Positions 54,659-57,926 of a DNA stretch of 64,000 nt are shown piece after piece. The stretch lies in assembly GCA_017503865.1 (NCBI GenBank), contig JAFVSI010000015.1, forward strand, positions 7,175 to 71,174. The letters are read 5' to 3'. The translations under genes and the position numbers were made by a program. This DNA comes from Clostridia bacterium. Lineage in GTDB: Bacteria > Bacillota > Clostridia > Oscillospirales > CAG-272. The notes under the pieces were generated by a model that saw nothing but the letters and a program-made list of their open reading frames with translations, was not told where the DNA came from and ran no database searches. How positions within the stretch are numbered: position 1 is the first letter of the stretch; each line of letters opens with the position of its first letter.

Positions 54659-54961
54659 TTATGCAAGTGCGTGCTCAAGCCAAACGACACCAATGCTGAA
54701 AGCATCGTAAAGACCTTCCTTAGCTCCCTGCTTTATGATCTTGTTAGGATCTTTAGAATCAATGACCTGAACGAATATCTTGTCAGGTACCTGATTACCG
54801 CCTTCTTCCTTATACGACATTATCTCGAGAATGAGAATACATTTTTCCGTCTTATCTCCATAGCAAATGGTATTTCCCTCACGCACAAGCGGTCTGTCCT
54901 TGTACATAAGATATTTGCCTTCAACCAAATTAGTTATATCTGCCACAACTCGTACCTCCAT
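54659..54961 (-). CDS. Hypothetical small protein (95-100 aa)
   Basis: Protein-like composition, unlike its plus-strand mirror ORF. GGAGGT sits at codons 1-3, so GTG 54946 is an alternative start. No family recognised. Confidence 0.5.
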   Translation of the reverse strand: MEVRVVADITNLVEGKYLMYKDRPLVREGNTICYGDKTEKCILILEIMSYKEEGGNQVPDKIFVQVIDSKDPNKIIKQGAKEGLYDAFSIGVVWLEHALA

Positions 54962-55015
54962 ATATTTTCATAAGTATTATAAAACAAAAACAGTAAATTG
55001 TCAAGAACTTCAAGC

Positions 55016-56824
55016 TCAGGAAAGATATTTTCTAAGTGCTTCAATAAGCTTGTCATTGTCTTCGGTATTTCTAATTGCAATTCGCATAAATTCTTTACCG
55101 CTACCGCCAAGCTTTTGAGTAAGATCCTTGACAAGAATATCATCGTTAATGAGAAGATTTTTTGTTAACTCCTCAGCACTTATTCCGCAAAGCTCTATAA
55201 GAAGATAGTTAGCTTCGGACGGAAAAACGCGTATTGATTTAAACGATGACAAAAGTTCTACGAAGCGACGTCGCTCTTCCTTAAATTTCTTTAGAGCCAA
55301 GACGTAGTCGCTCTTATATTTTTCAGCAATCTGCATATAGAATTCACCGAAGGAATTTATATTCCAAATTGCAACGTCACGCTTAATGTCAGCAATCAGC
55401 TTTGCATCACCCGATGCAAGAACACCGAGACGAAGTCCCGGAACTCCGTATGACTTCGAGATGCTCTTAACAACAACAAGGTGAGGATTTTTCGCAAGTA
55501 TATTGCTATCAATAAGAGTAGAATTTTCTTCGGAAAAATCAACGAAGGACTCGTCGATAATGAGCTTGATTCCCATTTCTGCAGCCCAATCGATAAGTCG
55601 AAGAACATCAGCTCTCGGTATGTAGTTGCCCGTAGGATTGTCGGGATTTACAATTACAAGATTTGATACGTCCTTGTCACAAAAATAGGAAATAACGTCA
55701 TCAGCGTTATAGCGGAATCCATCTGTTTCGGGCATCATAACAACGCTTTCTTCCTTCAAAAAGCGGTTAGGATACTCCTCAAAGGTCGGACGGATAAAGC
55801 CTGTCTTGCCCACAAGCGACTCCATCATTGCTTTTATAAGCTCAGCCGCACCGTTGCCAACGACAATCTCCTCAGGCTGAACGCCAAAATTCTTAGCCGC
55901 AAGCAAGGAATTGACTCTCATCCCCGAAGGATATTCACAAAGAAGAGTCTCAAAGCTGTTCTTTATCTCCCCTATCATTCTCTTAGGCGGATAATAGGGA
56001 TTTACAAGATAGCAAAAATCGATAAGCTTGGGGTAACGCCAATAACCGCCAAAACGTGACTGAAGAAGCTTCACCTTCTCGTGAGGGTCTGTCGTAAACA
56101 TTGAGGACGCAATATCAAGGTCCTGAACGTCATCTATCTCATACCACTTGTGAGAGGAAAGTCGCTTTGCACGTATCTCGGTTTCGTCAAGCATAGTGAT
56201 AACACGAAGCACCTGCTCATAATACTCGTTATTGCCAAGTGCACTCGAATATGCCTTAAGGAAGGGCACGTAGCAATTCTTCGAGAAATTTTTGCTGAAC
56301 TTATATATGTTTACAGTCTTATAGTACTCGTCAACCTCGTCATAATCGAGTTTTTTGCCCGATATAAAGGCATCTATAGTATCGTCAGCTGAAATTTTTA
56401 CGCAAGTACCGTCCATCCAAGCCTCATACTTGTCAACAAGGGCGAGAGTGGGGCGAGGATCTGAAACAAGCTCTTCAATTACTCCGTCCTCAAAGATAAG
56501 GTCGGACTCAAAGAGAAGAGTGTCGTCCTCGCAAAGATAATCACTTGCAAGATAAAGCGAGTATATATTATTGGTCTTATCGTAAATGGGATTTTCAACG
56601 TAAACGATAGGAGTTTTAACGTCAAGCGTTGAAATATAATCAATAAGGTGCTGGGAACGGTATCCGACAACAATTACGATTTTGTCAAGATTTTGCTTGT
56701 CAAGCTGAGAGAGCATACGCTCGATAAGCGTAACCCCGTTGACTTTGACCATACATTTAGTATTGTCTCGGGTAAACTCTTTAAGACGCTTACCCATCCC
56801 CGCTGCCAAAATAATTGCGTTCAT
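55016..56824 (-). CDS. Fusion of LicC-like nucleotidyl(cytidylyl)transferase and class I/II PLP aminotransferase/decarboxylase (HisC/CobD-like)
   Basis: N-terminal 235 aa: AIILAAGMGKRL, NNIYSLYLA, WYEIDDVQDL (compare pneumococcal LicC). C-terminal 360 aa: DFCYLVNPYYPP, VNPDNPTGNY, SISKSYGVPGLRLG (PLP lysine). Confidence 0.85.
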   Translation of the reverse strand: MNAIILAAGMGKRLKEFTRDNTKCMVKVNGVTLIERMLSQLDKQNLDKIVIVVGYRSQHLIDYISTLDVKTPIVYVENPIYDKTNNIYSLYLASDYLCEDDTLLFESDLIFEDGVIEELVSDPRPTLALVDKYEAWMDGTCVKISADDTIDAFISGKKLDYDEVDEYYKTVNIYKFSKNFSKNCYVPFLKAYSSALGNNEYYEQVLRVITMLDETEIRAKRLSSHKWYEIDDVQDLDIASSMFTTDPHEKVKLLQSRFGGYWRYPKLIDFCYLVNPYYPPKRMIGEIKNSFETLLCEYPSGMRVNSLLAAKNFGVQPEEIVVGNGAAELIKAMMESLVGKTGFIRPTFEEYPNRFLKEESVVMMPETDGFRYNADDVISYFCDKDVSNLVIVNPDNPTGNYIPRADVLRLIDWAAEMGIKLIIDESFVDFSEENSTLIDSNILAKNPHLVVVKSISKSYGVPGLRLGVLASGDAKLIADIKRDVAIWNINSFGEFYMQIAEKYKSDYVLALKKFKEERRRFVELLSSFKSIRVFPSEANYLLIELCGISAEELTKNLLINDDILVKDLTQKLGGSGKEFMRIAIRNTEDNDKLIEALRKYLS

Positions 56825-56880
56825 TTATCAATTTCCTTGTCTTTTAATAAAATTTCGTTTAGACATAGTTATACTTTTAA

Positions 56881-56909
56881 AGTATAGCACAATATTTAGC
56901 ATTTGTCAA
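56881..56909 (-). promoter_or_regulatory. Promoter of the LicC-aminotransferase fusion gene
   Basis: Minus strand TTGACA (56904..56909), 17-nt spacer, TATACT (56881..56886). A 7-1-7 palindrome ATACTTT-T-AAAGTAT (56871..56885) overlaps the -10. Confidence 0.55.
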
Positions 56910-56910
56910 T

Positions 56911-56944
56911 AAAAAAGGAGACGTTCAAAATCGTCTCCTTTTTT
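56911..56944 (-). terminator. Terminator after ddh
   Basis: aaaaaaggagacg / cgtctcctttttt stem. Confidence 0.85.
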
Positions 56945-56945
56945 A

Positions 56946-57926
56946 TCAAAGCAATTTCTTGCGAAGCTCTTCACCACTCATCTGTGAGAGATATGCGGGA
57001 GCTACGTCAAGGACAGTCTTGCAGCCCTTTTGACCTTCCTTGTTCATTCTATATGCCGCACGTGCATATGCAACGAGGACGGACGAGGTAAACTCGGGGT
57101 TAGAGTCAAGCTTCAAGCTGTACTCGATAACGTGTTTATGCTCTTTGTTAAAGCCCGTCACACCGCTTCTTATCACAACGCCGCCGTGAGGAATGCCCGA
57201 ATGGTCACGGCGAAGCTCATCAAGAGAAATGAAATGAACAGTAGTATCGTAATCGGCAAAGTAGTTAGGCATCGTCTTTATCTCGTTCTCAATTCTTGCA
57301 AGATCTGCACCCTCTTCTGCAACAACGAAACACTCTCTTGTATGTTTCTCTCTTGCACTAAGCGTAGGAGCGTCACCGCTTCTAACTGCCTCAAGTGCCT
57401 TTTCTACGGGAATGGTATATTGTCTTGCATCAACAACGCCCTCTATTCTTCTGATAGCGTCGGAATGTCCCTGACTTACACCCTTACCCCAAAAAGTATA
57501 GTCGTTTCCTTCGGGGAGAATTGCTCCCGCGTACATTCTGTTAAGTGAGAACATACCGGGGTCCCAACCAACAGAAATAATAGCTACCTTTCCGCTCTCA
57601 CCTGCCGCCTTGTCAACGTTTGCAAAATGCTCGGGTATTCTTGCGTGGGTATCAAAGCTATCAATTACGTTAAAATATTTTACGTACTCGGGCGTCTGAA
57701 CAGGCAGGTCGGTCGCACTGCCACCGCAAATAATAAGAACGTCTATCATATCGGTAAGATTTTTAATATCGTCAATATGGTAAACACCAACGCCCTCGGT
57801 GGCGATCTTCAAGCTTTCGGGAGGTCTTCTTGTAACAACTGCAACAAGCTCCATGTCGCTGTTTTGTCTTATAGCAGCCTCAACGCCACGTCCGAGATTT
57901 CCATAACCTAAAATTCCTACTCGCAT
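56946..57926 (-). CDS. ddh: meso-Diaminopimelate D-dehydrogenase
   Basis: 326 aa, colinear with Corynebacterium Ddh: GYGNLGR, GWDPGMFS, WG.G.SQGHSDA.RR, MPNYF, PHGG. Confidence 0.92.
   Translation of the reverse strand: MRVGILGYGNLGRGVEAAIRQNSDMELVAVVTRRPPESLKIATEGVGVYHIDDIKNLTDMIDVLIICGGSATDLPVQTPEYVKYFNVIDSFDTHARIPEHFANVDKAAGESGKVAIISVGWDPGMFSLNRMYAGAILPEGNDYTFWGKGVSQGHSDAIRRIEGVVDARQYTIPVEKALEAVRSGDAPTLSAREKHTRECFVVAEEGADLARIENEIKTMPNYFADYDTTVHFISLDELRRDHSGIPHGGVVIRSGVTGFNKEHKHVIEYSLKLDSNPEFTSSVLVAYARAAYRMNKEGQKGCKTVLDVAPAYLSQMSGEELRKKLL

Follow-up and report, generated by a model that had tools for sequence, protein, structure and literature searches.

The window analyzed here, a stretch of 64,000 nucleotides, belongs to the assembly of an uncultured Clostridia bacterium of the gut (2.14 Mb, 95% complete, contamination estimate 4.4%) and carries a gene in which a nucleotidyltransferase is fused to a PLP enzyme (Table 1). 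The reading frame is unbroken with 0 internal stops, and Pfam assigns NTP_transf_3/NTP_transferase (PF12804/PF00483) to residues 3–122 and Aminotran_1_2 (PF00155) to residues 313–597; the fusion described in the first-pass annotation is thus borne out, as is every motif quoted there. The AlphaFold model reaches a mean pLDDT of 95.5 across both domains. More than 8000 full-length clusters exist at 90% identity, and the fusion is therefore no assembly artefact. Relative to orthologues of 90–93% identity, which occupy the same ddh–ribF site, dN/dS is 0.040–0.055 for the whole fusion and 0.012–0.015 for the nucleotidyltransferase domain, compared to 0.018–0.033 for ddh. The gene is functional and under strong purifying selection (dN/dS ~0.05). 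As had been stated before, the ORF list and Pfam place no PEP mutase, choline kinase or transferase among the adjoining genes.

Table 1 Features at the fusion locus, with positions in the window
Feature	Position	Strand	Description and basis
Fused nucleotidyltransferase and fold-type-I PLP enzyme	55016..56824	-	602 aa; ORF, Pfam, PDB search, AlphaFold model, dN/dS
PntC/LicC-type cytidylyltransferase domain	56096..56824	-	residues ~1–243; solved relatives, alignment, conservation
SMUL_1544/CobD-type PLP domain, predicted decarboxylase	55019..56062	-	residues ~255–602; PDB matches, tree, motifs
Sigma-70-type promoter of the fusion	56881..56909	-	TTGACA, 17 nt, TG-extended TATACT; 11/12 match
Hairpin, likely ddh terminator	56911..56944	-	13-bp stem, 8-nt loop, ends in T run; read from sequence
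AT-rich palindrome over the -10 box	56870..56886	.	17 bp, 8-bp arms; one arm is the -10 box
Small conserved gene outside the module	54659..54961	-	probably 95 aa, start 54946; own promoter 54976..55004
ddh (meso-diaminopimelate dehydrogenase)	56946..57926	-	housekeeping neighbour marking the site; TIGR01921 above cut-off

In relatives with 77–93% identity, ddh lies upstream of the fusion at the same position. The hairpin that abuts the -35 box of the fusion likely terminates ddh; it is absent from the list of the scanner, and the orthologues carry a different hairpin at the same place. Since this hairpin is followed by a near-consensus promoter and the next ORF has a promoter of its own, the fusion gene looks monocistronic. 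At three orthologous loci the -35, TG and -10 positions of the promoter are retained while the symmetry of the palindrome is lost. The palindrome, previously given as 15 bp, exists and overlaps the -10 box, but it is longer than described and is one of nine perfect inverted repeats in the window (arms of at least 8 bp, spacer of 0–1 base). We rejected it as an operator because its symmetry is not conserved and such repeats recur; it is probably due to chance and lies outside the system. The 100-aa ORF reported downstream as conserved-looking does exist and is indeed conserved, but it stands apart from the fusion. Its promoter matches the consensus at 12/12 positions. Of 80 genomes examined from the order, 70 contain the ORF, almost invariably in one copy, whereas the fusion is limited to 7 of 72 genomes of the genus, so that the two form no unit and the ORF was rejected as a fusion partner. 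It has no match in Pfam or NCBIfam and is an unannotated near-core gene, unrelated to the fusion.

The best solved relatives of the nucleotidyltransferase domain are Tde-PntC (E = 1e-16) and LicC (E = 7e-13). The G-x-G-x-R...K motif of the fold is intact (G9, G11, R13, K23); from the alignment, R13 and K23 likely serve CTP, and D108, D138, E229 and D231 are likely metal ligands. In PntC, Glu104 and Glu196 surround the primary amine, while the Asp/Asp pair of LicC fits choline (Rice et al. 2019, PMC6697681). In the fusion, E106 and E203 align with E104 and E196 of Tde-PntC, the LicC equivalents being Asp105 and Asp192, and each position is Glu in 86 of 89 relatives. The likeness to LicC noted earlier thus stands for fold and motif, but the domain is nearer to PntC, and an identity as LicC was rejected because the wide Asp105/Asp192 choline pocket is replaced by E106/E203. 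PntC features are found in the Glu/Glu primary-amine pocket and the acidic metal ligands, but the PEP mutase pathway was not found in the genome. Whichever partner adjoins the fusion, be it opine dehydrogenase, OCD or methyltransferase, or no such partner at all, the pocket residues hardly vary, which suggests that the substrate has a plain primary amine and that N-modification takes place later, with the reductase predicted to act once the amine has been activated.

The PntC match would also suit a phosphonate pathway with a CMP-aminoalkylphosphonate as product (AEP from phosphonoalanine, or an FrbH-type product); distant split homologues do lie beside PEP mutase, and FrbH cytidylylates a phosphono-amino acid. 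We nevertheless regard this pathway as very improbable. PEP mutase (PF13714) has no match in this 95% complete genome, and the copies linked to PEP mutase branch far from the family and differ in the sequence of their pocket. Since no PEP mutase was found, an aminophosphonate product is unlikely in this genome. Of the head groups considered in the first-pass annotation the amino-alcohol stays, with ethanolamine favoured. A Mesorhizobium split homologue lies beside PEP mutase and one more aminotransferase of class I/II, with no phosphonopyruvate decarboxylase (Ppd) annotated within the 14 kb shown; this context fits a decarboxylase role, here on phosphonoalanine, in a reaction that would be the phosphonate counterpart of the one proposed below. 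Two rhizobial plasmid loci (L147:3744-8218, L104:5756-9740) combine PEP mutase, a nucleotidyltransferase and a PLP-domain homologue with no Ppd annotated, and are candidates for a route to AEP via phosphonoalanine decarboxylation. Distant full-length homologues on a Priestia plasmid (L103) and a Rahnella plasmid (L105) are accompanied by ATP-grasp ligases and MFS transporters in what look like small-molecule clusters, where the annotation shows no PEP mutase close by.

The PLP domain carries the motifs GGYW, DFCYLVNP and DESF, and K457 (the Schiff-base lysine, codon 55454..55456), D424, R465 and R581 are all present and conserved among relatives. Its PDB matches are led by 6OUX (SMUL_1544, E = 6e-46), followed by 3FTB (2e-33) and CobD 1LC5 (2e-32), with other HisC entries at 2.5e-22 or weaker. 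The annotation of 6OUX describes SMUL_1544 as a serine-O-phosphate decarboxylase with a role in norcobamide synthesis. Identity to the PLP domain is ~32%, and the motifs CYL-x-NP, DESF, WN and IA-x-R are common to both. In a quick tree SMUL_1544 joins the fusion family (SH-aLRT 94) on a long branch, with CobD-like and three HisC-like rows apart. In our motif table the fusion family and SMUL_1544 have DESF in common, with DEAF in CobD and DEAY in HisC and in HisC-like enzymes linked to TupA and HAD genes. Residue 566 is Lys in 79 of 89 relatives and Arg in SMUL_1544, CobD and HisC. We predict from these comparisons a PLP domain of decarboxylase type, closest to the L-serine-phosphate decarboxylase SMUL_1544. 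The earlier label of a HisC/CobD-type enzyme is thereby narrowed: in PDB ranking and tree the domain groups with SMUL_1544 and not with HisC or CobD. Two direct identities were rejected: (i) CobD, as TIGR01140 scores 175.5 bits with a cut-off of 290.55 and CbiB was not found in the genome search, and (ii) HisC, as TIGR01141 scores 150.9 bits with a cut-off of 276.55, DESF replaces DEAY and a separate hisC is present in the genome.

The same fold is known to catalyze both DHAP transamination (as in Cj1437) and L-Thr-P decarboxylation (as in CobD) (PMC12409886), and a PLP domain of either kind would yield CDP-serinol or CDP-aminopropanol, each of which offers an amine to reductases. TIGR01140 is moreover the best NCBIfam match of the fusion, though far under its cut-off. 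We consider these products unlikely. SMUL_1544 exceeds Salmonella CobD by 44 bits against the PLP domain, CbiB was not found in the genome, and the HisC-like enzymes from TupA ATP-grasp/HAD contexts like Cj1435–1438 form a separate DEAY clade; these enzymes were entered in the tree as a context proxy only, and may be taken to stand for Cj1437. The affinity of the PLP domain to the Ser-P decarboxylase thus favours ethanolamine over serinol and aminopropanol. At two loci (L043:10027-12805, L029:2979-5810) a TupA ATP-grasp, a HAD-like protein and a HisC-like PLP enzyme adjoin the fusion itself, and such modules resemble the Cj1435–1438 amidation module and, in their context, the serinol-amide genes of Campylobacter (PMC12409886).

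At E = 1e-30 or better the family has 712 representatives (single-domain relatives included) from Bacillota, Actinomycetota, Spirochaetota, Fusobacteriota, cyanobacteria and proteobacteria; within Clostridia, 8 of 299 genomes (~3%) carry the fusion. We derived neighbourhoods from the 80 closest genome loci, which are not independent draws, and report plain counts with no statistical test. LicD is found at 28 loci and a TagF-type transferase at 25, never together (53 with either); an opine dehydrogenase is found at 24 and an OCD-like reductase at 13, together in one locus (36 with either). All 13 OCDs and 23 of the 24 opine dehydrogenases lie at most 250 nt from the fusion frame. Many of these loci are Wzx/Wzy, flagellin-glycan or YidC-sulfatase clusters, and the neighbourhoods support the earlier claim that a single polypeptide supplies a CDP-activated phospho-amine to the cell surface. 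Reductases and SAM methyltransferases as partners require an amine product, and the tailoring and transfer partners as a whole require an amine-bearing CDP-alcohol. At the same ddh site, the fusion of the 77% orthologue is followed by an opine dehydrogenase, which makes the reductase partner part of the history of the fusion locus. Fusion-free glycan loci also carry these reductases (G377, G227), which therefore need not act on the product of the fusion.

The family includes triple fusions with a C-terminal SAM methyltransferase (P0123, P0124, P0216, P0260) and other fusions with a TagF-type domain, and a cyanobacterial locus (L146:6971-10433) encodes fusion, methyltransferase and licD in this order. 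The triple fusions and the cyanobacterial operon are candidates for choline-independent CDP-choline or N-methyl-ethanolamine donors. Several other arrangements were observed. A locus with fusion, reductase and licD is present in Butyrivibrio sp. AE3009 (L025). Next to TagF-type transferases, a protein that combines a YidC-like domain with a sulfatase/LTA-synthase-like one is found repeatedly (L011:7966-10524, L041, L071 and others), and sulfatase-like genes of the YidC-sulfatase cluster are present at 22 of the 80 loci. The OCD beside the fusion in genome G312 (L125:8058-8951) has two in-frame stops within the match and may be a pseudogene; an opine dehydrogenase is encoded elsewhere in that genome. 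A parallel, fusion-free module in G319 (L113:5883-12350) comprises a pair of LicD genes, a PLP enzyme of class V, an OCD as well as an opine dehydrogenase, and a protein in which a TagD-like cytidylyltransferase is joined to a GFO oxidoreductase; this module may have arrived at the same donor by convergence.

The genome under study encodes serC–serA away from the contig of the fusion, and the separate hisC lies in a his operon. Also on another contig is an OCD of the partner subfamily (C23:169-1110, E = 2e-153), an orphan that follows an IscS-like gene and is unlinked to the fusion. Among 299 other Clostridia genomes, 5 have a member of this subfamily, in 3 cases next to the fusion. The genome search suggested in the first-pass annotation, for PEP mutase and LicD-like transferases, gave no match in the 95% complete assembly. 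Pfam profiles (LicD, Glyphos_transf, Stealth) detected no LicD, TagF-type or Stealth protein in this genome, with no signal from the Stealth positive control; custom profiles for LicD, TagF and YidC-sulfatase, together with a scan for the LicD motif, likewise found nothing there, and no Wzy-type cluster was seen. By inspection, the two PF00884 matches of the genome are lipoprotein-like and not LTA synthases. Glycan genes (rfbF/G-like, GT2, rfbH-like and a priming sugar transferase) do not form a cluster but lie dispersed between housekeeping genes (C35:23785-27553, C45:451-3621, C27:93757-94362).

A hairpin-rich repeat of ~350–400 bp has matches on more than 25 contigs, in many cases at contig ends (C23:1-148, C23:12077-12486), and the same repeat type is found at L141:7600-7980 and L141:4950-5365. 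Short ORFs on some repeat-bearing contigs (C23:8845, C23:33977, C24:7243) are presumably Y1/RAYT-transposase-like, judged by motif, and the dispersed repeat resembles an element of the REPIN/MITE type at which the assembly is interrupted. Because many contigs end in this repeat, an assembly gap is the simplest account of the missing transferase, the alternative being a lipid acceptor or an unrecognised transferase. Duplicated assembly stretches (C5/C60 with a CDP-alcohol phosphotransferase and its neighbours, C15/C56 with galE) are consistent with the contamination estimate.

With a lipid as acceptor, the chemistry would be the same and CDP-ethanolamine would feed a membrane lipid via a CDP-alcohol phosphotransferase in a Kennedy-like manner, or would pass to an unrecognised transferase. 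LicD and TagF were not found in this genome, two distinct CDP-OH_P_transf genes were, and distant homologues adjoin CDP-alcohol phosphotransferases. We still judge this decidedly unlikely. On inspection, both CDP-OH_P_transf genes look PgsA-like and stand in housekeeping contexts; the genes that recur around the 80 close loci include no conspicuous cluster of CDP-alcohol phosphotransferases; and LicD or TagF is present in each of the 14 further genomes with the fusion that we checked. This last argument is weak, as half of the genus genomes (36 of 72) have LicD alone. A cobamide linker, suggested by the role of SMUL_1544 in norcobamide synthesis, a part in histidine synthesis, and a relic of a lost glycan locus, suggested by the orphaned position of the gene, are largely excluded and together retain only a very slim chance. 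CbiB was not found and glycan genes neighbour the fusion elsewhere, the genome has its separate hisC, and dN/dS of the fusion near the ddh value argues against decay.

We therefore return to surface decoration and propose that the fusion is probably a phosphoserine-fed CDP-ethanolamine synthase, a function predicted from its domains and their relatives. The two domains would convert L-serine O-phosphate (from SerA/SerC) and CTP to CDP-ethanolamine, CO2 and PPi. Two orders of steps come into consideration, which we rate about equal: (i) Ser-P to ethanolamine-P to CDP-ethanolamine, as SMUL_1544 followed by PntC would do, or (ii) Ser-P to CDP-serine to CDP-ethanolamine, following the logic of FrbH. 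The 'make-then-activate' order put forward earlier is thus not established, since FrbH activates first. The OCD/mu-crystallin-family reductase encoded on C23 would then probably condense the amine with a 2-oxo acid, e.g., pyruvate, to give an N-(1-carboxyalkyl)ethanolamine-phosphate group, which a LicD- or TagF-type phosphotransferase would move onto a surface glycan. A LicD enzyme takes CDP-ethanolamine as donor in vitro (PMC11982090), and N-(1-carboxyethyl)ethanolamine phosphate is a known Proteus O-antigen substituent (PMC9630907). The Proteus O-antigen gene-cluster paper makes no mention of ethanolamine and hence offers no gene-to-structure link. Counting against our proposal are the ~32% identity and long branch to SMUL_1544, the transferase not found here and the unlinked OCD. 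Detached from any transferase, this copy is a poor one for studying the acceptor.

For the family as a whole, we give an even chance to its being an entry enzyme that leads from phosphoserine to CDP-ethanolamine, maybe via CDP-L-serine, with no need of lipid donors or of ethanolamine or choline uptake. Its partners would be exchangeable: two unrelated reductase families leading to opine-type N-carboxyalkyl-ethanolamine phosphate, and methyltransferases leading to de novo N-methylated or phosphocholine glycan tags. Each half-reaction has precedent. Our literature search, which had most subscription journals outside its reach, found no study of the fusion, of a phosphoserine to CDP-ethanolamine route or of its exchangeable tailoring enzymes, and the fusion family is very widespread and apparently uncharacterised. 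The bacterial phosphocholine routes covered by one review (PMC10434233) use choline uptake or phospholipids, and the word 'serine' is absent from its main text. If the proposal is true, a CDP-ethanolamine-type donor is made directly from serine biosynthesis in ~3% of Clostridia genomes (8/299) and in bacteria from several other phyla. Structural work has revealed zwitterionic glycan substituents and others of the N-carboxyethyl-ethanolamine-phosphate type, for which candidate genes would then be at hand. With methyltransferases, the outcome would be choline-independent phosphocholine tags, which host proteins recognise.

Among known systems, FrbH of FR-900098 biosynthesis in Streptomyces rubellomurinus is reported to include a PLP decarboxylase part, for which the CMP conjugate is the substrate. 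Its architecture is thus probably the same as that of the fusion, and it is probably a characterised precedent for this build, likened here by description. The PF12804 cytidylyltransferase of FrbH cytidylylates L-2-amino-4-phosphonobutyrate (Rice et al., PMC6697681), a phosphonate substrate in an antibiotic pathway with PEP mutase, and neither a named FrbH nor an FR-900098-like locus was among our homologue matches. Tde1415 PntC-AEPT (Treponema denticola, PDB 6PD1/6PD2) likewise joins an N-terminal nucleotidyltransferase to a PLP enzyme, has the Glu/Glu amine pocket and serves surface decoration. However, the PLP part of Tde1415 belongs to the class V transaminases (PF00266) and not to PF00155, so that the parallel drawn earlier to aminotransferase fusions of AEP pathways does not hold for the PLP part; 6PD1 aligns to residues 2–241 of the fusion only, and Tde1415 needs PEP mutase and Ppd, the former not found in this genome. 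SMUL_1544 (Sulfurospirillum multivorans) is the closest characterised relative of the PLP domain. Cj1436 of Campylobacter jejuni makes ethanolamine phosphate for the capsule (PMC12409886) and is likened by description, not by sequence. Both are stand-alone proteins, in contrast to the fusion, and neither product becomes a CDP donor, that of SMUL_1544 entering a cobamide linker and that of Cj1436 being made an amide by an ATP-grasp ligase. The Lic-1 pathway (LicA, LicB, LicC, LicD) likewise hands a CDP-activated phospho-amino-alcohol to LicD. LicC has an Asp/Asp pocket where the fusion family has Glu/Glu, and Lic-1 salvages choline by a transporter and a kinase, whereas the fusion family would build its head group from phosphoserine.
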